Notes under the pieces: model-generated | Told to the model about the DNA's origin: nothing | Seen by the model: the letters and a program-made list of their open reading frames with translations, nothing else | The model's database searches: none | Part shown: one piece after another, positions 3,301 to 62,043 of the stretch | How the letters are laid out: each line of letters starts with the position of its first letter | How positions within the stretch are numbered: the stretch's first letter is position 1 | Program-made: the position numbers and the translations under genes | DNA from: Moniliella sp. 'wahieum' | Taxonomy: Eukaryota | Reading direction: 5' to 3' | Assembly (NCBI GenBank): GCA_003971905.1 | Contig: RSEE01000014.1 | Coordinates: 620,001 to 684,000, forward strand | DNA length: 64,000 nucleotides

Positions 3301-5369
3301 TTTCCCTCGGTCGATGCACCATGGGGTGCCGACCGAGTGATGCACGAGATGTTTGTTGCCCTTTCCGTCTGCCACACCGTCATCCCCTTCTGGACGGGCG
3401 ATAAGATCACCTACCAAGGCACCTCCCCCGATGAAGTTGGTGCAGTCTATGGCGCGCAGCTTGGCTACCGCCTCATTGCGCGCCAGCCCGGTGAAGTGTT
3501 TGTCAACTTTTGCAAGCAAGAGACGGACCGGTTCGAAGTGCTCTACCTCTGTCCCTTTCGTTCGTCCCGACGGTGTATGTCCCTTTTACTTCGTTGTCCC
3601 GGAAAAGTGCGGCTGTACGTCAAGGGGGCCGATCAGGTCATCTTCCCGCGCCTTTTGGATTTGTCTCCTTTGGTCCAGCTCTCGGGCGCGGATCTGCCAA
3701 GCACGCTGCGCCACCTCAATGCCTATGCGGTAGATGGCCTACGAACCATGGTGTACGCCGCGCGGGATGTGCCCGAAGCAGAGTATGTCCAATGGGAACG
3801 CACGCTCCGTGGCAGTCTCTCCGATCGCGCCTCGCCCGCCGAATTCGAAATGGCGCTGGCCAAGATGATGGACATGCTGGCTGGCCAGTCGCTCACCCTC
3901 TTGGGCGCTACAGGGATGGAGGATACTCTGTCCGAGGGCGTGGTCGACACGGTGCAAGCCTTCCACCGCGCCGGGCTCAAGCTCTTTGTCGTGTCGGGCG
4001 ACCAGAGAGATACAGTGCTTTCCACCGCTGTGAATAGCAAGGTGTTGGATCCCCATCTTAACCTTGTTGCCATTGACCAACCCGATGTGGGGTCGGCGTC
4101 GGAGCATGCTCACGAAGTACTGCGTGCTTATTCCGAGTCAAAGCGGAAAGAGACGGGAGACAAGGGCACCTTTGCTCTCCTACTGCAAGGCGCAGTGATC
4201 GATGCGCTGGACTCGGACCAATCCCCCGCCAAGGAGCAACCCGAACTGTTGGATGCCCTGCTGGAACTCATCTTGCTCAGTCAGGTCGTCATCATCCCTC
4301 GCGCTACGGCCCAAAACAAACTCGCGTTTACCCTCTGGGTACGGAAAGAGTTGACGGCCCGCATCTTGGCCGTTGGAGACGGGGACAACGATGAGGGCAT
4401 GCTCCGTGCAGCCCATGTAGGGGTTGGGATGGCGGCTCTGGTCCATGGTTCTACTGCGGATGTGACCCTCTCCGAGTTTCGTATGCTGCGCAAGCTCTTG
4501 CTGGTCCATGGATTCTGGTCCTACACTCGGGTCAGCAAGATGGTGCTGTATGTGCTCTACACCAATGTGGCCTTGTACGGCTGTGTATTTTGGTATGCCA
4601 TCCAATCGGGCTGGTCGGGCGCCACGCCGATTGAGGGGTGGGAGATGACCTTTTTCTTCTCCACCTTCTTTGTCTTGCCCCCTGCTCTGGGATTGGGGTT
4701 GTTTGACAAGCCGCTCAACGCCCGGATGCTGGAGCGCTTTCCTCAGCTCTATGGTTCGCCCCTCTTGAGCCTGCAGCGCGGGTACGACTTTCTCCTCAAT
4801 GGTCTCGTGCATTCAGCAGTCACGTACCTCTTGGTCAGCTGGGGGTTATGGGACACGCAATTGACTGGTGGCTACACAGCGGCCGAAGGTGTCTTTGGCC
4901 AGACACTCTTCTTTTCCGTCCTCGCCACTATCCTGATCAAGGCGGTTGCGATGAGCAACACGATCAATGTCTACACGTTTGCCGCCTGGGTGGGAACCTA
5001 CTTTGCGGCGTTGGTGTATGGTCTACTGTGGACGATCATTGCGCCTGCCATCCCGCGCATTCATCTCGCCTGGTCCCTCCGCCACCTCGTACCGCGCTTG
5101 TATCCGTTCAGTCTGTTTTGGTTCGCCACCCTGCTCACGCCCGTGGTATCGTGCTTCCGCGACGTGCTCTGGCGCTTTGGCAGCGCACCTACCGTCCCGA
5201 AGTGATCCATTTGGTGCAGGAAGTACAACACCTCAACGTGCACGACTACAAGGCACGCTTGACCAAGTACCAAAAGAACCGGAACCAAGTCGCGCCCCGA
5301 CTGCCACGCCGCAAGTGGGGCGGGGGCGGGTTTGCCTTTGCTCAGATGGATCCGCCGCTCTGGGCCTGA
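337..5369 (+). CDS. Divergent Drs2/ATP8A-like phospholipid-translocating P4-ATPase (start uncertain; frameshifts; intron 1943-1995)
   Basis: ORF 2245-5205 has FLDKTGTLT (phosphorylation site, 3025-3039), ALSVCHTVIP, YQGTSPDE, LYVKGAD, DGLRTM, LLGATGMED, AVGDGDND and LLLVHG. TM1-2 SLFFLFIIIMQQIPSVSP follows a GTACGT...CTAAC...TAG intron. After a shift near 5180 the tail reads RTYRPEVIHLVQEVQ...GFAFAQ, like the Drs2 C-terminal GFAFS tail. The N-terminal 337-1900 region is low complexity and its inclusion is inferred. Confidence 0.9.
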
Positions 5370-5438
5370 CCTGCTTCCACCTCGCCTACCTCCTCCTCCT
5401 CCTCCGCCCTGCCCTGCCCTGCCCCGCCTCCCGACCAA

Positions 5439-5470
<32 letters not shown>
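5439..5470. repeat. (ACGAGC)x5 microsatellite
   Basis: acgagcacgagcacgagcacgagcacgagc read directly. Confidence 0.9.
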
Positions 5471-5471
<1 letters not shown>

Positions 5472-5879
5472 CCGCCAGCTTACCGCGGCTGGACCCTCGT
5501 GGACTTTGCCCGGGCGTTTGACTCGAGCTTGGCGCGCTCGCCCGCCGCTGCCGCAGATACCCCCCCGTAAAACGCGTAAACCACCCACTTGAAGTGCATC
5601 CTGTATATCATCCATCGGTCTCCATGGCCCTGGCGCCTAGCGTCGTATGGTTGGGCGTGTGGTATGTGAAGACCCCCGGGTATCCCGGAGTGGGGTCCAG
5701 GAGCGGGGGTGCAAGGATCGGATCGGTTCCGCAGTACACTTGCGCCTGCTCTCGGGTCCCTGGATAAACCTAATATCTTAGCCTAAGACCTAAGGCCAAA
5801 GCGGGGTGGCAGCTACGCGATACCCCGGGCACATGGCGAACTCTGCGGTCAACGTGCTGTTTCCACGGAACCTCTTCCA

Positions 5880-8490
5880 GCTCCGGCACAGATCTCAGAC
5901 CCAGGCTTCAGGAGCTTCAGGGCCTCAGGCCTGACCTCTCGGGCGTCAAGCTCAAGCTTCAAGTTGACGCGGCGTTACGCGTTACAATGGGGCCGGGGGG
6001 TCAAGCTGCGGCCCTGTGCACCTGAGGCCTAATCAGTACGAAGTGAGGGCCAGACTGAGCGCGGGTAACGCGGTAACGCGGGAAACTGGAAGCTTGACAC
6101 ATGAAGATAGGAGATTGAATTTAATTATGCACGATGGAGCAGGGGCTCTGAGACTCTCAGACGCTGTGGGGGTCGGCTATTGCCTGTTGCATGCTCAGTG
6201 TTCCTTGATGTGTCCAGGTAGCTCGAAGGTTCAATTGGGCTGAGCGCGGAGCATGTGAGGCCTTGGCGCCTCGGGCCCTAAGGCCCTGAGGCCCTGAGGG
6301 TTCAAAGCATCCAGTACAGTAACTGTAACTAGAGTAGCTGCCGGTAGCTGGTAAAGCATCCCAGAACAGATCTCAGTCTGAGATCGGAGTCGCTTGCATA
6401 AGGGGGGACACGAGAGGGAGCGTAATGCGGGCGAGTGTGCCCTGCTGGCCGCGAACGCAAAGCCTAAAGCCTAGAGCCTAAGGCCTACCCGACCACCAGC
6501 GGTGAACACCAAATAGTGATAGCTACGACGGATAATCGATAGCCGCAACAACCAAAGTATTATAACGGAAGCTAATACTCTTCTTCGATCCCAAAAAGCA
6601 TAATCCAACCCGACACGATTGGACAGAAAATAGGGGGAGGCGGGACCGAGACTACCGGTGGGCTGCTGGCTCTCGTCTGGCGCTCGTCTCGGCCGTGCGC
6701 AGGCGAACAAGAAACGGCGAAAAGAGCGACGCACGAGAGGGTGCAGGATAGTGCGTGTGGGGGTTGGCACGTTGGCGCGTTGGCGCCCACGAAGAGACAT
6801 GCGGTACGTACCTCCTCGCTACGTACCGCCCATCGGCATTTCCGTTTTGGCGAACGATCCACACCCGAGGGGGACCTGGCCCCCCACCTACCCGACCCAC
6901 CCGACCTACCGACGGTGCCGGTGACTAGTGGCCGACGAACAGCTGCTTGACGAAACCTTAACTTTTAAAAACCGACAACGCTTGTATGTGAATGTCACAT
7001 GTCATGTGAATGTGATATGGCACAGTGGGCCCGCGGGTCCCGCTTCCTGGCACCTGATGCATGATGCAGGATGCGTGACGCGCAAGACGGCGGCGCGCGC
7101 GGCCCCTAGCCCACCAGTGCACCAGCCAGCATACAATCGATCACGTTCTCAAGACCATCCAGACCATCCAGACCATCCAAGCTGCAAGCCAGAGCGCGGC
7201 CTAGTGCCACATACATGATGGCCAGGGAAACGCGAAGCGTGATGAGTGACGCGTGACGCGTGACATGTGACACGAGAATAGTGACTGCTTTCATCACGCG
7301 TGTCACAGGTGTGACATGTGGCAATACGTCGTCTGGGATACGGGTGCGCTCTGGTGCACTTCGCGGGTCCCAGCCACAGTGTCGGTGACATGGTGACACA
7401 CTCGATTGTTCTGGGCTGCTGGCTCGGACCTGGTCGGGCCCCAGTAGGCCCCGGGCTGCCCCCCGCCGCCCCCGCGGATGCACTCAGTACTCAGACTGAG
7501 TACTGACTGTACTGACTGATGCACTGATGGTTCAGACTCTCCCAAGCTCCAAGTTGGATGGAGAAACAGGGAGAAGAAGAGAAGCGCGCGGGGCAACGAG
7601 AATGAGTAATTGATTGATGAGATCGCGATGATCGAGATGATCGATGATCCTGCTTGTGGATGCTTAAATGGTTCAGCGTTCACCCACCGGTCACCGTTCA
7701 ATGTTCACCGTTCATGCAGTTCAAACGTTCATGCATTCTGATTAGCGGTCTACTAATACAATACTGTTGGGACGTGCCAACGTTTGGGTCTCTGGGCTCT
7801 GGGCCGGCGAAGAGTTTGGCGGGGAGAGGGAGATTATCGATCATTATCGATTATCAATTCCTGGTGACCGTCACCGGTGAAGCAGCTGGTAAAGCTTTGA
7901 AGCTTGAAGCTCGTGAGAGTCACATCGATGCGCTGAGTGCATCAAGCTTCAAGTAGGATATAGGAGCACCGATGAATATATGAATCGAAGAAGCTTGCTT
8001 GTGAATATGAGAGGACTTGAAGCGCTGAAGGTTGACTTCAACTTGAAGGTTGTACACAGGAGTTCGAAGCTGAAACTGATGTTGAAGTGGAAGCTTGAAA
8101 CTTGAACGCTGGACAGTAGGAACTTACAGGGCCAAGCACGAGCGCATGAATCAGCGGTTAATAAGCCGTCAGAAAAAGGGGTGCAGGACGTGTAGGGCCT
8201 AGGCGTTGACATGCTGACACGTTGGCCGTTGCCCTTGAAGCCGAATCGTCGCAGCAGCCCCCAGCCCAGTGTGCACGAACAGGACCATGGCCTCCAGCCA
8301 TTTGCGCACCACAGAGCTGGCTGATACCTAAGATCTAAGATCTAGTCGTCTCCTTGAGCTATCGAAGGTCTCAGATCGGCTGATTGATGCAGGATGCATG
8401 ATACACGGTGCATGGTGCGACGACGGTGACCGGTGACTGATTAGTACGTCGATTAGTGGTCAATGAATGATTAACGATGCATGATGCGTC
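5880..8490. repeat. Intergenic field of 7-bp-period T-N-A + 4-bp-palindrome micro-arrays
   Basis: e.g. gtgacgcgtgacgcgtgacatgtgac (7246-7271), taagatctaagatctag (8329-8345), tttgaagcttgaagctc (~7896-7912), gcgttacgcgttac (~5972-5985), gatctcagtctgagatc (6369-6385). Confidence 0.8.
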
Positions 8491-10015
8491 GTGTGAGATG
8501 TGGGATGAGTGATGTATGATGGTAGGACTACGGCCTATTACGGACAGGTTTATAGTCGGTGGTCTATTGCAACCCCAAGCATGCCCGTCCGTACCTTCGT
8601 GAATGCCAGCGCGCGTCCATGTCCCCGTCCAACGTCCATGTCAGCGCAAGCCAGTACCGTACACGTACCGGCGCAAGAGGTCAGGAGGACGGGTGACACG
8701 GTGACGTACGCACGCCTGTTGCTGGTTGAGTTGTGCAACGCTGGGCGCTGGGCTTGATCGACAGAATGCTGCATGGACTCGGAAGATGGAGTGGTCACTA
8801 AAGTTACATGTCAAAGACAGCACCACCGACAGCCGTCTCTCTTTCGGAGCGCCTAGGTGTTCACATGTTCTCAGAGCACGAGCCTGCGCCAGCCGGGCAG
8901 GAAGAACCCCGGTGAGTGAGCATCCCTGTTCCCATTTGAAACGTGGTGCATATCGAAACATGCAATTGCGACCGATTAATCCGATTGCCAGTAAATTGGT
9001 ATCAACGTTTGTTGAACGCGGGTACCGTACCATCGGCCATCTCATATGCGCTATGCGCTGCGCGCTAATAACTAGCTGTTCTTGTGTGTGAAATGCTGCA
9101 CCAGACTGTACCCCCGTCAGTGCCTCGCTGGCTTCACCGATCGGCACGTTGCTTCGCCAGACCTGTGGATAGATGGCTATCCCATACAAGGCAAGCGCTG
9201 TTGTGGAGGACGCAAAGGCGCCGCACAAGAGACACACCCTACTGCAGCTCCGATCTGGCGCGGGGGAAGGGTGCGCTGCGTGGTGGCCTGCGCGTCGCTG
9301 ATGCAAACGGGGGTGGCCGATGGATGGATGGGCTGGGGCGATCGAGGGGAGGATATGAAAAGAGGAGCAGGCCAGGCCAGTAGCTGCGCTGCGCCTGAAT
9401 CCTGAGGCCTGACGTCAGTACCAGTGCGGCCGGAGGGCAGGAGGGGCAGAAGAGGAAGCTCGGATCTCAGATCGCAGAAGAGGGGGTTGGAGGGGGTGCG
9501 GCTGGCCAGGCACGGCAGGGTGGCAGGTGTTGTATTCGATGCTCTGCGCGCCAGGTGAGAGGCAAGGGCAGGCGAGGGCAGCACAGTCAGACTGGCGTGG
9601 ACCCTGGCTGCGGTGAGCGCAGCTGGAAATCAAGCCACCTCCGCTGTGGAACCAACGCTGGGGTACGTACATCAGCACAATATCGCATCGGTGGGCAGGG
9701 GGCCGCAGAGCAGCCGAGTGCGGCGCTGTGCTGCGCTGCCCCACGCTGCGGCTCGAGGCCCACGGCGTAGGCCTAAGGCCGAACAACCAGCAGCGCAGGG
9801 TTGCTAGAGCAGCTGCTATAGCATAGCAGCTCGATAATCGCAACCCTGCGCTGCTGACGCGCTGGCGCTGTCCCTGCATGCTGCCGCTACGCAGCACGCA
9901 GGCCGCCGTCCCACCCTCCCCCCACGCGCCGCCTCGACCTCCGCCGGCCCCGCCGCCTGCCCGCCGCCATCGCCCCCCCACCTCGCCTCCGCCCCACCAC
10001 CCACACGCCACCCCC

Positions 10016-11932: not shown

Positions 11933-13019
11933 TCTCGCTCCCAACTCGGGTTGTTGGCTTCTCATCTCAGTGTCGATGAAAGACGTGCCGAATAGGCTTC
12001 CATCACCACCACACCGTCTTCTCGTGGCGAGGGCGCAATCTGCGTTCCTTCTCGTATTGCTCTGGTACACGAGCTCCCAACCCCTTTCTTGAACCTCGAT
12101 CTGGGGTGGTCATCAGCCCCTTACTCGCCGTGGCCTGTGGAGATCCCATTTGAGCCGATACGGTAACCCCATAACCCCCTACCATACCCTTCCAACTCGG
12201 CTGTTCAGTGCCGAGTCACATCAACTTGGTGGGTTTTTTCTCCCTTTGGCCGTGATGCATGAGATGGCTTTCCTGCACGTGTGCAAACCTTGTCTGAGAG
12301 AGGCTCTGGCCGTACTTGGCTCACGCTTTGTGCGCTCACGCTTTGTGCGCTGGGGCAACAAAGCGGGAGAAAAGCCCAAGACGAGTCTATTTTTTTGGCC
12401 AGCGCTCACTGGCTCTCGTTCTCTCTCTTTGGCCTATCCCTACTTCTCCTCTTCCCTCTTCCGTTCCCCACTTCCTTCCTCACTGCTGCCTTCTTTTTTT
12501 GCTTCTACTTCTCTACCCCGGGTTGGCCTGTGCTGGCCACATCCAATCTGTCTACATATGTTTTGCTCGTGCTCCCCTCTCCCCGCCCGCTGTATGGACC
12601 TGTATCTACCCTCTACCCCCCTCCCTTTCCGTGCCTGTTTTGCCTCTCGCCTTTGCCCCCTCTAAGCTCTCTCCCCCTCTAAGCCCTCTCCCGCCCCGCT
12701 TTTCTGTGCCCCCTAGCGCCTAGCTCCCGCGACCCCCCCACGACCAGATGGCAGTCGTTTTTTGTCGCGCACGAACGCTCGCTCGCCCTCGCTATCGTAC
12801 CAAGTACCCCTGCTTGGTTCATAGCCGTAGACCGCATCCTATAGTTGACCTATTCGCTCGGTCGGTCTCCTCCTGTGGCTCGTATCATTCAAAATGTGTA
12901 TAGCATGTAAGGTTTGGTTGGTAGTTGAGGTCTTGTGCGGTCCAGTGTGTTGTGGGTACCAGGCTCAGATTCTCTCTCCTGCTATCGTCACTCGCAGCAA
13001 CAGACCGACACACCACATT

Positions 13020-14210
13020 AGATAGCGATGATCATCTCGATGATCGATGAGAAGCGTGACGTCACGAGACCCAGGAGGCGAAAGATTGCGTCTGAGTGTC
13101 TCAACGCTCACCAACGTCCAACGTCTCCCTAGCCGAGCGCACCCTTTCACATGGAACTGTGCTCCCGGCTCGGGGTTTTACAAGCGGGGCAAAGGGGACA
13201 AAGGGGGGGGGAGAGGGGGCAGTAGCGTGTGGTTTTGAACCTATGGTGAACCACACCATTGTGCACCACATAATGCATGTAACATGCATACTCCTGAGCC
13301 TCAGGCCTCATGAGGTTAATGATGCCGATGGTGGATTCAGTTTGGCTCCAGGGGACAAGTCGATTGTTCTCCATCTCAGGTACCAATAATGTGGTTCGGC
13401 GTGGCCAACGTCAACGTGATCAAACCCCTGAGCCTCATGCTTCCGGGCGTCAGGGCAGTGTTTCTTGTGTACTGTGAGTACAGGACTAATACAATGCACG
13501 CGACCAGCTGGTGCTTGGCACATTCCATGTACCATGACAGATCCATGAGGTCATGGGATGAGGAGAATGTCTTCGGCTGTTGGGTTGGCTGTTGCATGGT
13601 TGTATAGCTTATCTGACCGGGACGTGTGGGACGTAGAGTACGTTGAACGTTGAACCCGTTGAACGTTGAACAGATTGACAGGCATCGAACATGCGACAAG
13701 AGATGTGTGCTGTAACATGTGGCAGCGTTGTTGACATGTTGACAGGATGCCTGTTGGAACGTTGAACGTTGGTGCACGGTAGCAGGTAGCCGGTAGCTGG
13801 TAGCCGGTAGATGTCGATGATGGCACGCGGCAAGTGACTAGTGACTAGCGTGTGACATGTGATAGACATGTGACACGTACTTGTCAATGGACATGGCTTG
13901 AAGCTTGAGCGCTAGCTTTGAGCGCTGAGCTAAGCTTGAAGTTGGCACGTCCCCCAACAGTAGAAGTGACATGTGACAACTGTGGCAGCTCGCCCTAGCT
14001 AATAGTAAGGTGTGCGTCGTGCCTAGCGTGTGCAAGTGACATGTGATGCATGTGACATGTGACATGCATGACATGCGACTGTGACTTAATGATTGATGAT
14101 CGATGATCAATGATTAATGGCACGTGCTGCTCTGTTGAACACATTCAACTTTGGCATATATGTTGGGCGCATTACGCGTTACGCGTTACCGCGCGTTACC
14201 CGTTAAAGGG
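13020..14210. repeat. Second field of T-N-A + palindrome heptamer arrays
   Basis: acgttgaacgttgaa (13640), gtgactagtgactag (13834), gtgacatgtgatgcatgtgacatgtgac (14036), tgatgatcgatgatcaatga (~14094), ttacgcgttacgcgtta (14172). Confidence 0.8.
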
Positions 14211-14980
14211 CGACGGACCGAGGCTGAGGCTCCCGACAAGCCAGAGGGAGAATCGACACGCACGCGTTCGTGTTCGCCCTCGCGTTGGCGTCATCACTCG
14301 GGTTACTACATGTAGTTTTGGGCTGCGAAAACGATGCGCGCGAAGCTTTTTCCAGCGCGTTCAAGACGCGTAAACGCGTGTGAACGGTGCACGTTGAGAT
14401 CGACGCGTCTAACGATTAGCGCAACGCCCTAAGCGGGTTATTTACATGCATTGCACGTTACAGGTTGCCCGGCCCCTCGAGAGCACGCTCAGTACCTAAT
14501 ATACACAACGGAGAGAGTTTCGCGTGCCTCTGCAGCAGCCGTTCCCTATAGGCTCTATATGACACACAAACAGCACCGAGTATTCCACGGCGTTTTGAGT
14601 TCATGTGAACGTGCGAACTGCATCATGTGAACGTCCACAGAAGAGGTTCCACAGATAGAACGTCTCGGAGTTTTTTTGCAGCTGCTTGTGAACGTATACG
14701 CTGGAACTTTGTGGTATAGCGAGAAGCGTTTCTTCTGTTGTTCCTGCCGTATTCCGATCATTTACAGAGCTTAATAAGGCTTTTGGACAAAGACACCTAT
14801 TCTGCCCCTGGTTTGTCTTCACGTGTCTCAAATGGTATATGCATTCAGCAGAAGGAAACAAAATGAAGGTGGATGGGAGATCTCTAAGAAAGGAGGGGGG
14901 ACATGCGAGGGGTGTTGCATATACTCGCGGGCAACGAGCTTGGCTATCAGCTTAACTTGGGAATCGCACATTTCCCTTTT

Positions 14981-15096
14981 TTTACCTGTACCTTTACCTT
15001 TACCTTTACCTTTACCTTTACCTTTACCTTTACCTTTACCTTTACCTTTACCTTTACCTTTACCTTTACCTTTACCTTTACCTTTACCTTTACCTT
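14981..15096. repeat. (ACCTTT)n hexanucleotide microsatellite, ~19 units
   Basis: uninterrupted tacctt/tttacc run read directly. Confidence 0.97.
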
Positions 15097-16204
15097 GATG
15101 TTTGAAGGCTCTGCACGGGTCTCAAGTTGATCGGTGACACTCGCCTAGCCGGATGGAAGAAGAGATTCCCTCGGAGGCGCGGCGCACTCCCTGGGCTCTC
15201 CCCATCTCCCTCCTTTTTATCCAGTCTTCTTCCCTTCAGACGTTGCTTGAAAACTTGTGGCTCACCACACTTCTTCGCTTTATGCGTTTTGTCTGAAGGC
15301 TACTATGCAATAGGATCCCCGTCAGAGTGCTCCCAAAAGCCGCCAGCACCCGGTGGCACTTTACTCGTTGAAGCTTGAAGGTTGACTCCAAAGCTTATAA
15401 CGAGAAAACGACGAAAGAATTTTTTGGGGGGTGGCGAAGCTGTCCACGAAGGCTGTCAACAAACAGGATACCGGCATTTGGGTACTTAAAATCTGAGACG
15501 AGATGAGATGCACTTCAGAGTTCTTCGTAGTGTAATGTTGGGGAACACACCTTTGTGTCCCTAGTATAATAGGCTAAAGCACATCCTGATAGCGAGGGCT
15601 TTGTCGGGCCCAGCTCGACCTGCACCATTGGATTCGAGGAGTGTCAGAGCCGGAATAGCATGACGAGACCATGCGCAGTGGTAGCGAGGAAGAGCAATAA
15701 ATACAGCTCTCAGACTCACAACGCGCTTGATGCGTGCTCGAAGAGCGCGCTGAGAGGCGAGTGCTGAGTGCGGGCAGCATGAGAAGCTAGAAGATTGAGC
15801 TTGGAAACTGGAAGGCGCTGGTATCACGTGCCCTTGCGCAGGGCGGCATGCTTACGCAATTAGGCAACCCCACTGGGATCATCGGTCATTTGATCAATTG
15901 GATCGATCATCGATACTTTTTGCTCCCGCCGGCACTGGACTGCTCCACCTTTCTGGCCAGCAGCCCATCTTCTGGCCTCCAGCTTCCCGCCTTTGCCATC
16001 CGCTCGTTCGCCATCCACTGCCCCCCCGACGCGTCGTTTCCTTGTGTTCTGTGCTCCCCGCCATCCCAATGCGCATCCCCGCCGCCTGGCGGCCCTGCGT
16101 GCTGCACTCACGCCGCCCCCACCTTCTTCCTCGCCCCCACCTCCCCCTCCTCCCATCCGTCCGCTACGCCCACTCCCCCGATCAGGCCACCCTTGCTGAA
16201 CTCC

Positions 16205-26736: not shown

Positions 26737-27805
26737 GGAGCAGTCGTCACGCTAAAGGCGCGGTGTATCGAGGCGGCTTGCGAGAAGTTGGTCACGTCGG
26801 AGTCTGCGCCCATCAACGTTATTGATGTTCTTAGGCCGGCTGCGCCAGCCACTTACTTGGGTTGTTGGCACCTTGTTACTCGGTATTCGAAATGCGCATC
26901 TGTTGGGCCCACCCAATCCTTAATCCACCCTCGTTTGTTATCGTGGCTTGATGCATCACTAGTCACTACATTACATTACCTTGACATGTTACAGCTATAG
27001 AATGCGGGTGTGTGAAATCGCGAGGCCGAGAGGTGTAACATGTAACATGCAACATGCAAAGGGCCAGGTGCAGGTGATCCGGGCCGTGGCCGGACCTGGC
27101 CTCGTGGACGCCGGCCTTGGGGGCAGTCGACCCTAGGCTGAGGCTCAGACCTGAAGATGGGGGGTAGTCGCAGGACGCACGCCAGAGAATATAGACATGC
27201 GGACTGGACGAGGGCGAAGGCGCCGGCATGGGGGCAGTGAGAAGCGGTCCAGTTCTGGGCTGATGTTCCTCACTGGCAGGATGCGTGCACGTGACCTGCG
27301 CGATGACCGGGGCTCCGCATCCCGCAAAATCAGACCACGACCGCCTGTCGCTCAGGCCCACGGGGCGCGTTCTCAGCCCACCACCCCTCTTCGGCACGGG
27401 TATCCTGATTTTCCCCAGTACCACCCTATCCAGTGTGACCCATGTGACCGCGGGTCAGCATGCCGCCGCCCCTGCCCAGGAAAAGCGCGGCCGGCGAAGA
27501 CTGCCATAGGGTGAGAACGCGGGGAAAGGCGCAGGGCTTTGCAGTGGTATAGCTCTAGCAACGCGATGCAGCTTACATATATTCTTTGTGACTTGTTCGG
27601 GGAATCCGCTGTATGTTCGATACAATGCGTCTTGCCGTATTGCCTCTCTCCTCTCTCTCTACTTTATCTGGCCTTAGGCCTTAGGCCCTTAGGCCTTAAG
27701 GCTTACGGAAATCCCCGCGATCATCCGCATCATCCGTCAAAAGATCACAGACATGTCGGAAGAGAGAAAAGGGCCTGACAGAACGCTTTTGAGCTCAGAG
27801 GCTGG

Positions 27806-37939: not shown

Positions 37940-39445
37940 CGGTGAACTTGAACGTTGAACGTTGCGTTTTGAACGCGGGAGGCGGGAGGAGTGACTAGTG
38001 AAATGTGAAACGATGCGTGATGCATGCAGCATGCACCTGCGCTTGAAAGTTGAAGCTGAGCCGGCGCGGCGAGCTCTGAATCTGAGATCATCGATCAGAG
38101 CGTAATTAATAATTGTCTTCCCACGGCCTGCGGCCGGAGGCGGCCCGGGTGCGGCGTACTGCCTGTCCCGTGTGTGGCGGCGTGGCTTGCTCCGCAAACA
38201 GTAGCAGCGCACTGGCGCCGTGCGGTACGCGATATGACTCGGTTGCCCGTGTTGCGGCCGACTACACAATCGGCGCGACTGAGTGGCCGGTGGCTACGAC
38301 GTGGGCGGGATGCCTGACATGTGACACTGATGCATGATGCCTGCCGCCAGAGACAGCAGGGCATGTGACATGTCACACGTGACCTGTGACTGGTTGTGAC
38401 ATGTGACATGTGATGCATGTGAACGCCGGGATAGACGATAGCGCCCCCTTTCGGCTCCTTAGTAAATCCTCTCACTCCAAGCCCCATCCTGCCTTCTGCT
38501 TTTCCATTCTCCATCTTCCCTAGATGGCTTGCTGCCCTGCGCTTCGAGCATGGCAGCAAAAAGGAGATCCACATCGGACAAAAGCAGGCGCCAACCTCCT
38601 GTCGGGAGGGCAGGGCAAAGCCACAGAGTGGCTGTGGCTCTGCTGCCAAAAGACCAAGTGTGGAGCATTGAACGTGAAAGAGACAGGCGGGGAGGCGGCC
38701 AGTAGCCAGCAAAAGCAGAAAAGCGGTCTCCTATTAACGTTTAACGTTTAACTGCGATGAGACTTTGCCGTAGTTGGGTCTGTTGGTGCCTCACACAGGC
38801 CCTCAGGCCCGAGGGAGACTTGCCTCTGTCCTCAAGCTCACGCTGTGGCCTCGCTCAGGAGACCCCGGGACAAAAATGGGGGGAAGCAGTAGAAGACCCA
38901 CCTGCTCCACTTAGTCTAAAAAAGGCACACTGACAGCGGGAGCGCGTGTCGTTTCCTTACCGGCCTTACCGCGCCTTACCCCTAAAGCGGACGGATCCGT
39001 ATATGGGAGACATTATAGACGCTGACAACGTCGGCAGAGCATATGCTGCTCGTAACAGGGCACGCGTCTCAGTTTCTGGGGAGCACCGTGTCTCCATATC
39101 CCCTAACCACGCCAGGAACGGTTCTTGTTCCTGGCGAAGCAGCCGCCGCTTTGTAAGTAGTTGCTATATAGTGCTAGGTGCGCGTCTTTGGCTGGCAGGC
39201 TATGTAGTAGCAAGGACTACATTAATAGTAGTGCTGGTGAGGTAGGGTCAAACTTCTCCTTTACTGCCACCGCGGGCCTATGCGGCACCCTATGGCACCC
39301 TACGGCGCCCTATCGCCGGGTTGGGTGGGTTCCTCGTTGTTTATGAATTAGTATAGGCATCGGGACGTTCTTGAAGCTTGAGGGCCGAGTAACTAGTGAG
39401 GCTTGAGAGGCTTGAGGCTTGAGGCCTGAGGCTCAGACCCTCAGG
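37940..39445. repeat. Third field of T-N-A + palindrome heptamer arrays
   Basis: tgaacttgaacgttgaacgtt (37943), gtgacatgtgacatgtgatgcatgtga (~38396), ttaacgtttaacgttta (38734), ttgaggcttgaggcctgaggctca (~39412). Confidence 0.75.
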
Positions 39446-40561
39446 GTTCTATAAAGATCAAGCGGTCAATTTGGGGTGTAGCAAGCCATTATATTGCATG
39501 GTTGTGGTGCACTGACTAGTAGTATATAGCAACAGAATGCATAAGCTGTCCTTCCCTCTTCTTCCACTTCGCATCATGCATCATGTTGCTTCCTTCCTCT
39601 ACATTCCTTGGCCTATAATCCCGACTCTGATCTCCCTCTTGCCTTATAATAGCCCCGACTGCGTGACAAAGTTGAAGAGCTCATCAGTTTGAACAAACCG
39701 CGAGGGCAGCTGGGACAAGCACTGTGAAGGAGGCTTGGATGCAACTCATTACGAGAGATTTTTGGAGGGTATATGCTGGTGATGTTGGCCCCACAGTCTT
39801 GCGGAAGGAAATCCTACCACAACGCGGATGTGCTTTTCGCCCCAAACGGCATTTCCCCTCCATACTTTATTGTCGAGGAAGAGGATTAGCTTCATGTATG
39901 TGGATTGACGTAGTATTAGTACTAAGTACACTCCCTCCGGTGCGCGGAAAAAAACATTCCAGAGCGGGACGCTGGGAAAGAAGAAATTGGGAATAGGAGC
40001 GAGATCGGCCAAACTATGGCAATATAGCTATCAAAACATATTATTGATGGGTAATGGTCTAACATGATGTGCATGATGTTGGTACTATTGTGCCGTGGAA
40101 CAGGTCACTCTCCGATGAGACGAAGAGTATTAGTGTACAGAAGAGGTGGCCAGTCGATTGGTCACAGAGAGTGGGAACGAAGTGACAAGCGAAGCGAAGG
40201 GTTTTGTGGGGTGGTAGAGACACACGACACCAACTGCAGTAGTAGAGAAGGACGGCAGGGAAGGCCGGCGCGAGCAAATATGATATGAACAGTGGCCTAT
40301 ACTAGCCCCTCCTAAGCCATGGCCTACCTTCGTTATAGATACCCCTTCTACTACACCTGTTATACTAATGACACCCTTCTTTCTATTGGCCACCAGCACG
40401 CTATATATCCTGTGGTGTCTTCAATCGTGGAAGTAGACCGAGCTCACCTCTGCTTGATTTCTTTGTCTTTCACACATCATGGACACCATTGTGTCAATAT
40501 GGTTGTAGCTATACTTCTACTAATATATGCGGTCTCGGTCGGTGTATGCATCCAGTTTCTT

Positions 40562-43940: not shown

Positions 43941-44181
43941 TCAGGCGAATGACAGAGCCGAGAGGCAGCTTTTGGGAGAGGAGGTGGTGGAGTTCATGGC
44001 AGCAGTAGAAGCGACTTGCGTCACAAACGCATTGGCCAAAGCAAAAACCCCGCTTTGGCAACGGCCTGTGAAAGTCTGCCTCGTTTGCACATGTTTGCAC
44101 ATGAGCAATTCCACATTTCAAAGTGCAGTCCATATATGCTCTGGCCGAACCGCAGGGTGACCACCGGGAACTTAACCCGTC

Positions 44182-44452
44182 ACGCGTCAAGCTTCAAGAG
44201 CTTCAAGCTTCATCGATGATCGATGAATGACGTTAATGACGCGGAGCGGACGCGTCGGTCATTAGGCGGAGTACGTTGTATGCACAGCCAAGCGACTGCA
44301 CCTGAGTACTGAGTGCCTGAGCGCTGAGCCTGCGCCCGAGTAACTGAGCTGAGGCTCAGCGCTGAGGCGCTGAGGCCCAGCCTGAGCGGCAACCAATGGT
44401 CTCTAGTGCTAGTGGCACTGCGCGCTAGCGCTTGAAGCTTGAAGCTTGAAGC
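44182..44452. repeat. Dense mixed-core heptamer palindrome lattice in divergent promoter
   Basis: acgcgt-c-aagctt ... aagctt-c-atcgat-g-atcgat (44182-44224); tga-gtac-tga and tga-gcgc-tga (44303-44328); tga-agct-tga-agct-tga (44433-44449). Confidence 0.85.
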
Positions 44453-58620: not shown

Positions 58621-59559
58621 GGCAAAGCGGTGGTCGTAGTGGTGGGGGAGAGGAGGAGGAGGAGTCTGATGGTGGGACGGGTGGCTGCCCTCCCAAGCGT
58701 ACTCTCTGCGCCCCGCCGGCATGGCGACGACGCAGGGTAGCAGGCGGGCATAATACTGACTCGGAGCATCGCAGCCAAGGCTTGGGGCGTGGCTGCCCCT
58801 GTGCGGGGGCGAGCGGCGAGAGACGGACACACTGGCCGGATGGCGCATGATGTGTCCGGTGGTACCCGGGCGGCCGACACTGGTGGGCTGCGGTGTGGAG
58901 AGCCCTGGCAGTTGGGCCTCCAAGTAGCGGCGGGGGTGCAGTCTTCGGCCCTGCCCCTCGGCCCGGACGGCAGCAGACTGCAGCGGGGTGCCCTGGGGTG
59001 CCCTGGGGTGCTGGTGCGCAGCGCACGGCCCCTGCCAGACCCTGGGTGCAGCACACGGCCAGTGCTGGAAGCCGCCCCAGGTGGCGAAATGCAGCACCCA
59101 GACCCTAGCTGTCGCCATCACATGTGACACATACGTAGCCGTACACAGGGCATGTGCCTGGTGTCTTTCATCAATTTCAGATGGCACACGCAGTAGGGCA
59201 GAGGAAATAATTATCTTATCACGTTCTAGGGCCACCGTCCAGCGCATCGTCCTCGCAAGTGAAATGGAAACGCAGCCGCCAGAGAAGCGGTGCGATCGCC
59301 ACCACCCAGGCGGGGACCGCATTGCATATTTATTGGACAGGAGGATGCAGCGAGTAGATCGGACTCTAATACCAGCAGCGCTATATCAGCACATCCCCTA
59401 TCCATGCGAATACAGTAGCATTCGCATCAAGACAAGAAAGCGAGAGACGAGAAGGGTGCAGCTGTGTGTGGTCTGTTGTACCCGAGACGCTCTAATAAAA
59501 GGCCCAGCTCGTGTGCAAACCCTCTTCCCTTTTTGATGTATCACTTGCTCTTAAGAAAT

Positions 59560-59910
59560 GCTAAGCGCTAAGCTCGCAATCAAGCCCACAGTTGCCGCAT
59601 GCATTGCACCAAGAGCTGCATCAACATGTAACAAGGGTGCCATAATTATGCTTCGAATCGGCATGATTGGAATCATCGGTGACTATCATCTGTCATCGAT
59701 CAGCAACTGTGACATGTGACATGTGACGCGTGACGTGTGATCAATGATTGATGATCACCTAGATCACCGCGTTGTATTCGTGTCTTGCAACAAAGACATG
59801 GACTCCTGTCTTTATATATGCTTTCCAGCCACACTCTCGACCCCCTCGCGAAAATCGATTACCACCTCTCCGGCATCAAGCTCTTCAAGCTTCAGGTGAA
59901 GCTTCAGGGA
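59560..59910. repeat. Heptamer palindrome lattice upstream of areA
   Basis: taagcgctaagc (59562), tgtgacatgtgacatgtgacgcgtgacgtgtga (59708-59740), tcaagcttcaggtgaagcttca (~59885). Confidence 0.8.
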
Positions 59911-60258
59911 CCACCGATGGCAGCAGGCTTGCCCTATTCCGGGCATGCAAGGTGTAATCCATATTACTCGGCAGCGCTGTGAAGCTTGAAAAAGGAGTAA
60001 TGTGTAGAGAATTGAGAGACGAGTAATAATAAAAGTCGCCGGGAGACACTTGAGAAGCTAGGGCCTCTGAGGTCTTCGGATGATGAAGCTGGTTAATAAG
60101 ATCATTCTGATTCCAGTTGATTGACCTGTTTGGTGCATGCATTGTCCCAGACCGAGTCAAGAATATAGCTGGCAGGGATGTCCACACGAGCATTCTGGTG
60201 TTGCGGAGAGGCGGAGGCAAGCTGAGAGGCGGAAGCTGACCGACACATCTACTAAACG

Positions 60259-62043
60259 TTAAACCTTGGGTTTTTTCGTCTCGGACTCCGCCACTTCTTC
60301 TCCTCCACCCGCCCGCTTCTTGGCCTCTGCGCTCGTCTTAGCCTGCCCAACCAGTGGCGGCGGCGGTGCCCCGGCTCTCCAGGTCAACTTGCTAGCCCAG
60401 TGGTCCTCGCGCAGGCGAGCCTGGCCTACACCATACAAGTGCTCACGGGCAGTAAGACCAACCGTGGTCCCCTCGCCAAATCCAGGCTGGCCCGTGTGCT
60501 TGCGTGGAAGCGGCACCCCCGTTGAAGTCGGGTAATCGTCCCAGACGTGGCCCCGACGCTGCAGTTCGGGAACAAGCTTATCGACGAGCGCGACTTGGGT
60601 ACCAGGTGTCACGGCATAGGCAAAGTTAAACCCATCCACCCCAGCCTCGGTTACCCAGCGCTCCAGCGCATCCGCCACCTTTGTCACCGACCCACGCACG
60701 ACCGGACCCAGGCCTCCCACCGTCAGCTGCTCCGCCACCGCCCGCTTGGTCCACCGGCCCACCTCAGGCGCATTCTTGGCAAAACCCTCGACGGCAGATT
60801 GAATTGCGTTGCCCTTGCTGCCTGGTGGCGCCAGCTCCTCATCATCGTCATAGCCCGACAAATCGATCCCCGTCCATCCACCAAACAGGGCCAGGGCGCC
60901 CTCCCCGCTGCCTTGCTCAACCCAAGCCTTGTATTGCTCTTCTGCCTCCTCATCCGTTTCGGCAACAATGACTGTCAGCAACGCCAGCACCTTGATCGAA
61001 TCCTCTTCCCGTCCTGCATCTTTGGCTGCCTGCCGTGCTGCATCGACCCGTTTCTTGGCCAGCTCGGGCTTGTGGGCGGCAATAAAGATGGCCTCGGCGT
61101 GTTTTCCAGCAAAGGCCAGACCCGGACCAGAGGAACCCGCTGGAAAATGAGCGGAGTACGCTGGGCACTGGGATGAACCAAGTGGGGACCGGGAACGTGA
61201 GGGTAGTGCTCACCCTAAGTTAAGATACAGAGGCCAACAGGGTCAGCAAAATTGATCTATATAGGATCAACAGTATAGCAAGCTGAAACGGAAGATCTCC
61301 TGAAAGACGTACCCTGTGATTGATCTGGCGTACCCGCTCGGGCCGCGTATAAATCTTCTTAGCCACGTCCAACGCCACAGCATCGTCTGCCAGCTCCCCT
61401 CCCACCTTAAAGACCACATCGAGGTACTCTGTTTCCGAGAGAAGGTTTTGATGTGTCATTTGTTAGATGCACGGTACAAAAGTAACAAAGGAGGGGGTGC
61501 AAGACCTCATCACGTACCGTGAGCAATTTCGTAGCGCTTCGCATGTAGCTCATTGCTTTCGCTCCCAAAGTTGCGAGCAGCCGAGTCCAGGTAACCCGTG
61601 ACCACGTTCCATCCCACCCGACCATTGGTCAGATGATCCAGTGTGGAAAAACGGCGAGCCAGCGCATACGGGTGCTCAAACGAGGTAGTTGCCGTCACGC
61701 CAAAAGTAAGGTTGGACGTGACGTGGGCCATCGCACTGACTACCAACTGAGGATCGGTAACAGGGAACTGGGCCCCGGAACGAAGCGCAGCATCGAGAGA
61801 GCCGCCGTACACGTCGTACCCTCCCCAGACGTCGGCAAGAAAGAGGCCATCAAATTTGCCTCGCTCCAAGAGCTGGGCCAAGTCGGTCCAGTAGCCCAAC
61901 GTGTCAAAGTTGCTGGACTTATCCCCGTTGGCAGTCCACAGCCCAGGCGACTGATGGCCAGCGCAGGACATGTCGAACGCATAGAGAAGCCAACGCTTCT
62001 CCGACTTGGGGGAGGGGGCAGCAATCGTAGCGGAGGGCGCCAT
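60259..62043 (-). CDS. NtaA/SnaA/DszA-family FMNH2-dependent luciferase-like monooxygenase; introns 61429-61517 and 61215-61312
   Basis: GHQSPGLW, YWTDLAQLLERGKFDGLFLAD, EHPYALARRFSTLDHLTNGRVGWNVVTG, PSAQRTPLIFQ, FGGWTGIDLS, VDGFNF, LVPELQRRG. Confidence 0.93.

Follow-up and report, generated by a model that had tools for sequence, protein, structure and literature searches.

Canonical hAT elements duplicate an 8-bp target of the form nTnnnnAn and leave odd palindromes that have the complement of the adjoining base at their centre. PIF/Harbinger and IS5-type elements use TNA (TWA) targets and the hotspot of Tn10/IS10 is GCTNAGC; duplications in these groups are 3 bp or 9 bp long, excision of Harbinger elements is usually precise, and the hairpins of Tn10 are formed on the transposon ends. 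We know of no described transposon family with a 7-bp target of the form nnTNAnn. MULE, hAT and Transib elements and the RAG enzyme leave hairpins on the flanking DNA, which Artemis-like enzymes of the host then open (PMC5499845, available part), and Pso2 and Artemis open hairpin-capped breaks 2 nt from the tip (PMC3299998, available part). In yeast, the scars of Ac/Ds carry palindromic P nucleotides and are Pso2-dependent (PMC5873905, available part). Basidiomycete DNA transposons with 7-bp target duplications have been described as hAT7 (Pucciniales) and Kyakuja (Laccaria); the available part of that paper does not report either of them from Ustilaginomycotina (PMC12730594; 0 occurrences of 'Ustilag').

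The window analysed here is a 64-kb stretch of DNA from Moniliella sp. 'wahieum', and its palindromic TNA lattice is confirmed as a real and very strong observation. Protein similarity places the DNA in the Ustilaginomycotina, the subphylum to which Ustilago maydis belongs. Strict units, in which two TNA triplets enclose a 4-bp palindrome, number 85 vs 6.3 expected under a third-order Markov null for the 64-kb window, an enrichment of 13.4x. Among the 16 XnY flank combinations tested, the remaining 15 hold palindromic cores at 0.7-1.5x, and non-palindromic cores between TnA flanks number 118 vs 88 expected; a sequence-only reading of this DNA had proposed the comparison of the two kinds of core, and it came out in favour of the palindromes. 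The excess stays under Markov nulls of order 1, 3 and 5 (7.4, 6.3 and 13.2 expected), and an order-6 null gives 31.2 expected vs the 85 observed. A scan of core lengths between TNAs revealed enrichment at 4 only. The strict units use 13 distinct cores, which include all 12 hexamers named by the sequence-only reading (it had spoken of at least a dozen) as well as ATTAAT (once); no AATT, ATAT or TATA cores occur among the 85. The three examples quoted in that reading, at 8329, 7484 and 8427, are all where it placed them. The pattern [N y c d][d'c'y'][N y c d] is found 80 times vs 0.25 when y is A and is preceded by T, and shows no enrichment when y is C, G or T. The central N of the two TNAs is identical in 70 of the 85 units and complementary in 10.

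Exact period-7 tandem arrays of at least two copies were counted 45 times vs 3.65 (third-order Markov null, 20 simulations). Their unit is a palindromic 6-mer plus one base in 29 of the 45, and 27 of those 29 have the form A-xxxx-T; by our own count, about 11% of random 7-mers have this composition. Arrays of period 6, 8 and 9 are in excess too. Since 64 of the 73 runs consist of a single unit, most are not arrays. Some arrays with 2-3 strict units occur, and the chains that contain them reach as many as 7 TNAs spaced 7 bp apart. In 15,256 bp of non-coding DNA the lag-7 identity is 0.308 vs a baseline of about 0.262, and the coding ORFs show period 3 only by the same measure.

Coding regions were delimited by the period-3 signal together with Pfam matches, gene calling by codon usage being too weak. 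Inside Pfam-supported ORFs (20,668 bp) lies 1 of the 85 strict units vs 27.4 expected. In the non-coding regions, 146 of the 808 TNA triplets belong to the strict lattice, and the spacers carry about one scar per 190 bp, distributed evenly among six intergenic regions. The intergenic regions holding most of the strict units lie between same-strand genes, and 2 units are located in a 3'-3' convergent spacer. The sequence-only reading had placed the arrays in non-coding upstream DNA; the non-coding part of that claim stands, and the upstream part is not separable from downstream. Runs with G only (TGA) and with C only (TCA) number 35 vs 11, a bias seen in every cluster and independent of gene orientation; with neighbouring runs merged the counts are 22 vs 10 (p=0.05). 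With a CpG observed/expected ratio of 0.88 for spacers and 0.91 for ORFs, CpG depletion gives no methylation signal. CpG transitions are visible among decayed units and neighbouring cores. No Rfam families or tRNAs were found in the 64-kb window.

The two bases outside one of the TNAs are a copy of half of the palindrome in 62 of the 73 runs. The chance of a full 2-nt flank match is 0.12, which gives a binomial p of about 1e-45. None of the 73 runs has zero flank matches on both sides, and the joint flank matches are (2,0)+(0,2)=21 vs (1,1)=2. Palindromic units with the same N and a matching flank number 64 vs 0.32 expected, and those without a matching flank 6 vs 1.45 expected. Outward from the TNA, period-7 identity is.71,.62,.40 and.32 on the left and.64,.67,.26 and.37 on the right, with a baseline of.27; it reaches 2 nt past the TNA and then falls, and the unit boundaries keep one fixed phase. 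The minimal structure is 12 bp long and consists of 5 nt direct, 2 nt inverted and 5 nt direct. From the flank match it follows that the basic event duplicates 7 bp centred on a TNA and leaves the inverted complement of the adjoining flank at the junction. The earlier view that ordinary slippage is insufficient is upheld by the single runs, the fixed boundaries and this 12-bp structure.

Exact TNA-centred 7-mers repeated with a spacer k of 0, 1 or 2 nt served as an independent test and were found 19, 7 and 12 times vs 0.1, 0.15 and 0.24 expected. All 7 spacers at k=1 are complementary to the adjoining base, and 10 of the 12 at k=2 are the inverted complement of the adjoining 2 nt (p 3.5e-8). 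With k=1-2 pooled, 17 of 19 spacers obey the inverted-complement rule, 12 of the 17 with asymmetric 7-mers; off-phase repeats of comparable kind obey it in 7 of 74. In chains with two core types (n=5), the outer flank matches the adjacent core in full in 7 of 10 cases, at one base of two in 2 and at none in 1. Extra chained units number 12, which is near the 7.6 +/- 2.5 predicted if later events strike TNA sites randomly. The junction variants present are +1 nt, +2 nt, plain duplication and complementary N, with one class making up the great majority. The arrangement TNA-pal4-pal4-TNA, in which both overhangs would be kept, was found 0 times vs 0.4 expected, and the product predicted if both ends were opened 1 nt from the hairpin tip was found once. 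The excess amounts to 63, 56 and 53 for units in which 0, 1 and 2 constraints are broken; this similar excess of intact and decayed units corresponds to roughly steady birth and neutral decay. A core composed of a flank and its inverted complement is a precise constraint on any explanation, whatever the agent.

All features are given in window positions and were entered without strand. The first cluster, the stretch singled out by the sequence-only reading (5880..8490), contains 19 strict units and 7 of 17 period-8/9 scars. At 5906..5921, CTTCAGG-AG-CTTCAGG is an asymmetric TNA-centred 7-mer repeated across a 2-nt spacer, AG, which is the inverted complement of the CT that opens the right copy, and at 6064..6078, GGTAACG-C-GGTAACG has a 1-nt spacer complementary to the adjoining base. 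The chain TGA-tgag-TGA-CGCG-TGA-CGCG-TGA-CATG-TGA (7240..7270) has a right flank CA that matches its last core CATG; adjacent cores in it differ by CpG transitions. At 7484..7518, TCA-GTAC-TCA is followed by its mirror TGA-GTAC-TGA and then by ACTGACT-GT-ACTGACT, which is of period 9 with a spacer that is the inverted complement of AC. The period-9 repeat GATGATC-GA-GATGATC merges into TGA-TCGA-TGA at 7627..7649. Two of the examples quoted earlier are TAA-GATC-TAA-GATC-TAG (8329..8345), in which the final triplet is degenerate, and TGA-CCGG-TGA (8427..8436), in which the left flank GG matches the core.

The second cluster (12253..15378) has 16 strict units, of which 13 show TGA on the + strand, with the cores ACGT, CTAG, CATG, AGCT, GCGC, TCGA, CGCG, TGCA and GGCC. 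The third (26949..27698) has 6 units, lies upstream of a B12D-family ORF and includes TTA-GGCC-TTA and CCTTAGG-C-CCTTAGG. In the fourth (37949..39925), with 16 units, TGA-CATG-TGA-CATG-TGA is found at 38397-38413 and TTA-ACGT-TTA-ACGT-TTA at 38734-38750. The cleanest case is CG|TCA-CGCG-TCA-AGCT-TCA|AG at 44178..44198 in the fifth cluster, where two unrelated cores each derive from their own outer flank (CG gives CGCG, AG gives AGCT). The remainder of that cluster (44203..44449) comprises TCA-AGCT-TCA-TCGA-TGA-TCGA-TGA, AATGACG-TT-AATGACG, GCTGAGG-C-GCTGAGG and TGA-AGCT-TGA-AGCT-TGA. The sixth cluster (59118..60262) has 10 units; at 59710-59733 it contains TG|TGA-CATG-TGA-CATG-TGA-CGCG-TGA|CG, with outer cores that match both flanks.

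We read the lattice, with about as much belief as doubt, as a fossil record of breaks mended via hairpins, most likely the excision scars of cut-and-paste transposons. By analogy with Pso2 and Artemis, the inverted-complement junctions would mark breaks that had been capped by hairpins and opened 2 nt from the tip. An element would insert at nnTNAnn and duplicate 7 bp, leaving ab-TNA-cd on either side. At excision each flank would be sealed as a blunt hairpin, as is established for MULE, Transib and RAG enzymes, and a host nuclease of the Pso2/Artemis type would nick the 3' side of each hairpin at 2 nt from its tip, a cut that is an established property of these enzymes and whose use in this genome is presumed. 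The last two flank bases would thereby become a 4-nt overhang that is self-complementary, cd-d'c' on the left and b'a'-ab on the right. End joining that retains one overhang and drops the other would give ab-TNA-cdd'c'-TNA-cd or ab-TNA-b'a'ab-TNA-cd. In either product two TNAs with an identical N would be spaced by exactly 7 bp and enclose a 4-bp palindrome, half of which would recur in one outer flank. The sequence of the window contains this geometry in each respect (7-bp spacing, same N, palindrome and flank half).

A symmetric target would yield cohesive overhangs and a perfect 14-mer. Less complete trimming would leave two 7-mers separated by 1 or 2 inverted nt, which would explain the period-8 and period-9 arrays, and opening 4-5 nt from the tip would produce a minority with complementary N. 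Later events at one of the duplicated TNAs may build short chains, possibly with two cores, one for each original flank, and the scars would thereafter decay neutrally with visible CpG transitions.

Several observations count against the excision model. Ac/Ds gave 28 different footprints in 128 excisions (PMC5873905, available part) vs nearly one event type here; the scar density is very high and the product with both overhangs is absent; TGA and TCA would be indistinguishable to a symmetric transposase, yet the bias is 35 to 11; and the window is without any matching element. No element with a 7-bp duplication and terminal inverted repeats was found in the 64 kb. The element scan gave 1 weak match with a TNA-centred duplication, which lies inside lattice arrays, and a scan with any 7-mer gave 2 weak matches. 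MITE-like inverted repeats and dispersed repeat families with shared flanks were likewise not found in the window, and no transposase domain was detected by Pfam in roughly 159 ORFs, those from 56.4 kb on being scanned in part. A search with the Sec7 ORF gave no matches among bacterial and archaeal contigs, and a scan for three copies of TGACATG returned 68 bacterial loci with a heptad array of a different kind (GTGAC-NN), which resembles protein-binding iterons. A literature search found no published description of a TNA-palindrome lattice. More tentatively, and with a probability below even, the agent may be an undescribed TNA-targeting, hairpin-forming cut-and-paste system, either a 7-bp-duplicating element or a domesticated enzyme derived from one, long active in spacers of the Ustilaginomycotina lineage at a rate per TNA close to that of point mutation per base.

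The same chemistry could run without a mobile element if a host enzyme, such as a domesticated transposase, left hairpin-capped breaks at intergenic TNA sites. The window without an element, the very uniform outcome and the dense scars, even across six intergenic regions, would agree with this, and the strand bias could reflect replication coupling. A 7-bp direct duplication, however, needs staggered strand transfer and a second cleavage, which are natural for an element and not for a plain nuclease, and the known domesticated hairpin-forming transposases (Kat1, RAG) act at a few defined sites, not thousands; we consider such an enzyme improbable. An origin as self-complementary heptamer microsatellites, whose foldable units would grow by slippage or template switching without double-strand breaks, is also unlikely. 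It would account for chains of as many as 7 TNAs that include arrays of 2-3 strict units, for the excess of periods 6, 8 and 9 and, through orientation-dependent hairpin stability at the fork (G.G vs C.C mismatches), for the TGA bias, but most runs are single (64 of 73), the boundaries keep a fixed phase 2 nt outside the TNA, and 5 direct, 2 inverted and 5 direct nt are not a 7-bp tandem copy. Moreover, asymmetric 7-mers obey the inverted-complement rule yet cannot fold, the CNG, GNC and ANT frames, which are just as self-complementary, show no enrichment, and N is copied direct, not inverted.

Four narrower schemes were rejected. A 3-bp TNA duplication with two bases from each transposon end fails because the cores copy local flanks; a duplicated stretch that extends 2 nt beyond the TNA implies a 7-bp duplication instead. 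Decay of tandemly duplicated symmetric 7-mers does not agree with the joint flank matches (21 vs 2). Inverted duplication or fold-back template switching, the repair variant suggested earlier, is disfavoured by the 70 of 85 units in which both TNAs carry the same N, only 10 having a complementary N. Fill-in of a 3-nt TNA overhang is rejected because adjacent TNA-TNA pairs, at 113 vs 117, show no enrichment.

A selected cis-regulatory or chromatin lattice, read by a protein at a TNA every 7 bp or by dimeric factors on palindromic hexamers, is very unlikely. The restriction to intergenic DNA adjoining genes speaks for it, as do the iteron-like bacterial GTGAC-NN arrays and some hexamers (ACGCGT, CATGTG), which coincide with known fungal sites. 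Against it are the thirteen unrelated cores, the dictation of each core by its neighbouring flank, which no binding code predicts, and the units in the 3'-3' spacer; the excess of decayed units is about equal to that of intact ones, so that nothing is visibly maintained. A sequencing or assembly artefact is barely credible: we found no points in its favour, and the units are short, non-homopolymeric and set in unique sequence, decay by graded mutation including CpG transitions, avoid coding DNA and obey a precise flank rule. The sequence-only reading, which had left the choice between a mutational process and a regulatory code, is partly supported as a whole; its mutational branch (hairpin repair or footprints of a TNA-targeting transposase) is favoured by the flank-built cores and by neutral birth and decay, with the exception of template switching, and its regulatory branch finds no support.

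If the reading as excision scars is true, transposon activity could be read from spacer DNA without seeing the element, and a single 64-kb window would suffice to infer the target nnTNAnn, the 7-bp duplication and the 2-nt position of hairpin opening. Growth of compact fungal spacers would proceed in steps of 7-9 bp, and the scars would create palindromic hexamers and short arrays that could be mistaken for regulatory sites in promoter-motif searches. The reading predicts a genome-wide 12-mer grammar, filled sites somewhere and ancestral states with a single TNA in relatives. Should the undescribed hopping system exist, its scars would rank among the main sources of intergenic growth, of A-xxxx-T hexamers and of heptamer arrays, would record the in vivo cut position of the host hairpin-opening nuclease, and would give the bias of TGA over TCA the meaning of a coupling to replication direction.

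In comparison with known systems, the excision footprints of elements with flank hairpins (Ac/Ds, other hAT, MULE, Transib) and the P nucleotides of V(D)J coding joints keep a fixed-length direct duplication, as here, and their junctions are likewise the inverted complement of the adjoining flank (PMC5873905, PMC5499845, available parts). The 2-nt arm equals the cut preferred by Pso2 and Artemis (PMC3299998, available part), and the palindromes are even, whereas Ac/Ds palindromes have the complement of the bordering base at their centre (PMC5873905, available part). The lattice differs further from hairpin-type footprints in a duplication that is 7 bp long and TNA-centred, in one dominant outcome where experiments yield dozens, in a density of about one scar per 190 bp of spacer without an element nearby, and in its strand bias. 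With micro- and minisatellites it shares short head-to-tail repeats in non-coding DNA, a few units here reaching at least 3 copies, and it departs from them in the fixed phase, the flank-derived palindromic cores, the requirement for TNA and the mostly single units. PIF/Harbinger, IS5-type and Tn10/IS10 elements have a central TNA and a two-fold symmetry of the target like that of the lattice; the 3-bp TNA/TWA duplication of PIF/Harbinger is not matched, the duplicated stretch here extending 2 nt further on each side. Canonical hAT elements are not matched either, since T and A occupy positions 3 and 5 of a 7-bp duplication and the palindromes are even, with d and d' both present. Compared by duplication length alone, hAT7 and Kyakuja share that length and the phylum with the lattice (PMC12730594, available part), and hAT7 belongs to a superfamily that forms flank hairpins, as is proposed here.

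The lattice of the window consists of units in which two TNA triplets enclose a core, a 4-bp palindrome, so that TNA recurs every 7 bp between genes. The examples quoted in the sequence-only reading were all found where it placed them, and the comparison it proposed, palindromic against non-palindromic cores under a Markov null, gave 85 TnA-(4-bp palindrome)-TnA units versus 6.3 expected. The excess persists across nulls of order 1 (7.4), 3 (6.3) and 5 (13.2), and even an order-6 null, over-fitted for a sequence of 64 kb, expects only 31 versus the 85 observed. Non-palindromic cores between TnA reach only 1.34x, and palindromic cores in the 15 remaining XnY frames 0.7x to 1.5x. Enrichment is seen only at a core length of 4 (length 3, 1.8x; length 5, 2.2x), the eight palindromic cases of length 11 being merely two units each. 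Thirteen cores are used: CATG (16), AGCT (14), TCGA (9), GGCC, CGCG and ACGT (7 each), TGCA and GTAC (6 each), CTAG (5), GCGC (4), CCGG (2), GATC and TTAA (1 each). With N the central base of TNA and primes denoting complementary bases, the pattern [N y c d][d'c'y'][N y c d] with y = A occurs 80 times versus 0.25 expected when T precedes it and 13 versus 1.25 when it does not; no enrichment was found for y = C, G or T, and both A and T are necessary for the pattern. Exact period-7 tandem arrays of at least two copies number 45 versus 3.65 expected, the strongest excess among several short periods (period 6, 44 vs. 12.8; period 8, 8 vs. 0.6; period 9, 9 vs. 0.4). The unit is a 6-bp palindrome plus one base in 29 of the 45, with the form A-xxxx-T in 27 of these 29. 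Window-wide, 6-bp palindromes starting with A number 286 versus 185 expected, and those starting with C, G or T are at or below expectation (T, 189 vs. 169); the most frequent single palindrome, TGGCCA (53), lies outside the lattice. A period-7 array of CGGTAGC at 13777-13810 (TAG-CCGG-TAG-CAGG-...), with TAG replacing T-N-A, breaks the lattice rule.

The 85 units form 73 runs (unbroken series of strict units), of which 64 are single, 6 double and 3 triple. Period-7 identity outward from a run is.71,.62,.40 and.32 on the left and.64,.67,.26 and.37 on the right (baseline.27); it is high at the two outer positions and lower beyond, and the left and right flanks are interdependent. Flank matches (left, right; each of 2) are distributed as (2,2) 15, (2,1) 13, (1,2) 13, (2,0) 11, (0,2) 10, (0,1) 5, (1,0) 4, (1,1) 2 and (0,0) 0, with at least one fully matching flank in 62 of the 73 runs (0.12 by chance). 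Decay of symmetric 14-mers was rejected, as it predicts that (1,1) should be common and (2,0) rare, the opposite of what was found. The distribution points to TNA-xy-y'x'-TNA-xy, or its mirror, as the elementary structure, which is a 5-nt direct repeat with the inverted complement of its own end between the copies. Palindromic units with the same N number 64 versus 0.32 expected with a matching flank and 6 versus 1.45, near background, without one. If the unit is ab-TNA-cd (ab and cd being the 2 nt to the left and right of TNA) and of hairpin origin, loss-free products are predicted to be two 7-mers separated by one or two inverted nt. In exact TNA-centred 7-mers with a 1-nt gap the spacer is the complement of the neighbouring base (7/7), and with a 2-nt gap it is the inverted complement of the neighbouring 2 nt (10/12, p 3.5e-8). 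Across the other phases of such repeats the rule is followed only at chance level (7 of 74). The majority of these 7-mers are asymmetric and unable to self-fold (ACTGACT-GT-ACTGACT, TGTGACC-CA-TGTGACC, AATGACG-TT-AATGACG), and inverted-spacer products explain 5 of the 8 period-8 arrays and 3 of the 4 TNA-bearing period-9 arrays. Duplication, the inverted-complement rule and the requirement for TNA are all directly visible in these data.

The window is eukaryotic, with approximately 58% G+C. Its Pfam-scanned ORFs encode a P4-ATPase, a C2H2 zinc-finger protein, an ABC1 kinase, a protein disulfide isomerase, an actin-capping subunit, Ysc84, a B12D-family protein, a nitronate monooxygenase, a P450 and a large Sec7/BIG exchange factor; no Rfam families or tRNAs were found in it. 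The best named protein matches of the ABC1 ORF (~57% identity) are from Tilletiaria, Sympodiomycopsis, Exobasidium, Parajaminaea and other Ustilaginomycotina, which places the source in this subphylum, distant from any named species among the proteins compared. The acidic C-terminal tail of the Sec7/BIG protein contains a 9-residue repeat (roughly GDEPVA-x-EK), encoded by ~19 copies of a 27-bp repeat at 46872-47396 in the minus-strand ORF 46688-49531. Positions 1-28 carry GGGTT/GGGCT pentamer repeats of telomere-like composition, the unit not being TTAGGG. The lattice lies in six clusters (5.9-9.4, 12.3-15.4, 26.9-27.7, 37.9-39.9, 44.2-44.4 and 59.1-60.3 kb). Its confinement to non-coding DNA, as the sequence-only reading had it, is borne out by the Pfam-supported ORFs (20,668 bp), which hold one of the 85 units versus 27.4 expected. 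In non-coding regions, lag-7 identity is 0.308 versus ~0.262, and 146 of 808 TNA triplets belong to the strict lattice. The C2H2 zinc-finger gene is flanked by two spacers of ~4.5 kb (5205-9826 and 11930-16355), which together contain 37 of the 85 units; for the gene density of this fungal group they are unusually long. The second also contains an almost perfect hexanucleotide microsatellite, (TTTACC)19, at 14981-15096.

To turn an arbitrary flank into a palindrome, both strands at a broken end must be covalently joined and then nicked off-centre. Flank-hairpin transposases and RAG are described as joining strands in this way, the host being left to open the hairpin (PMC5499845), and Ac/Ds scars in Candida and Saccharomyces as containing such P nucleotides and as Pso2-dependent (PMC5873905). 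From the scars we infer a hairpin, a nuclease and a mobile element. A 7-bp duplication of ab-TNA-cd, with blunt hairpins opened at +2 at both ends, would give the 4-nt overhangs cdd'c' and b'a'ab; retention of one and loss of the other would yield the two mirror structures observed, with spacing 7 and N preserved. At a symmetric target the overhangs would be cohesive and the product a perfect 14-mer, of which 17 were found versus 0.02 expected. Opening at 4-5 nt would produce the complementary-N class (10 of the 85 units, with a matching flank in 6 versus 0.25 expected). Repeated targeting would produce chains (several TNAs at 7-bp spacing) of the form ab-(TNA-b'a'ab)m-TNA-(cdd'c'-TNA)n-cd, a clean example being CG/TCA-CGCG-TCA-AGCT-TCA/AG at 44178. 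Five mixed chains match fully at 7 of 10 outer flanks, and random re-targeting predicts 7.6 ± 2.5 extra units in chains, near the 12 counted.

The sequence-only reading had offered either a mutational process, such as hairpin repair or transposon excision, or a regulatory code. Flank-derived cores and inverted-complement spacers argue for the former, and the hairpin footprint is the best supported reading, held with about even confidence. The regulatory alternative is without support: the excess of units with 0, 1 and 2 broken constraints (63, 56 and 53) is roughly as predicted by constant production and neutral decay, which speaks against maintenance by selection. The most frequent single defect is a broken inner pair, and CpG transitions distinguish many neighbouring cores (CGCG/CATG/CACG, TCGA/TTGA/TCAA). 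As a rough estimate, a fixed scar is gained per TNA site about as frequently as a substitution per base, and a few active elements could suffice for this rate. Slippage, by which the arrays would be ordinary microsatellites, finds its strongest argument in a strand bias. On the plus strand TGA exceeds TCA in all six clusters, whatever the orientation of neighbouring genes, with 35 G-only versus 11 C-only runs (22 vs. 10 with neighbours merged, p=0.05) as for instance at 12253-15378 (13 TGA vs. 1 TCA units); no such skew separates TAA from TTA. The bias is beyond what a symmetric enzyme can generate, and replication coupling may be involved. Within the 64-kb window no element or MITE was found, nor any transposase among the roughly 159 ORFs scanned against Pfam; the scar outcome is far more uniform than experimental footprints, and the both-overhang product is absent.

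No published description of this lattice was found in the literature. Three copies of TGACATG occur at 68 loci in bacterial genome and MAG contigs of very diverse bacteria (e.g., L047, 1380-1560; L016, 4995-5195; L050, 4040-4085). These arrays consist of GTGAC plus two variable bases (AT, GC, AA, AG, TT, TC) free of the palindrome constraint, frequently in inverted pairs spaced 150-200 bp or at the ends of contigs; in appearance they resemble iterons bound by a protein, or the termini of elements, a phenomenon apart from the lattice. PIF/Harbinger elements have only TNA in common with it, and the scars depart from canonical hAT geometry. Among described elements, hAT7 and Kyakuja of basidiomycetes are the only ones known to make a duplication of the same length, 7 bp (PMC12730594). 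The nearest kinds are hairpin-type excision footprints and the P nucleotides of V(D)J joining.
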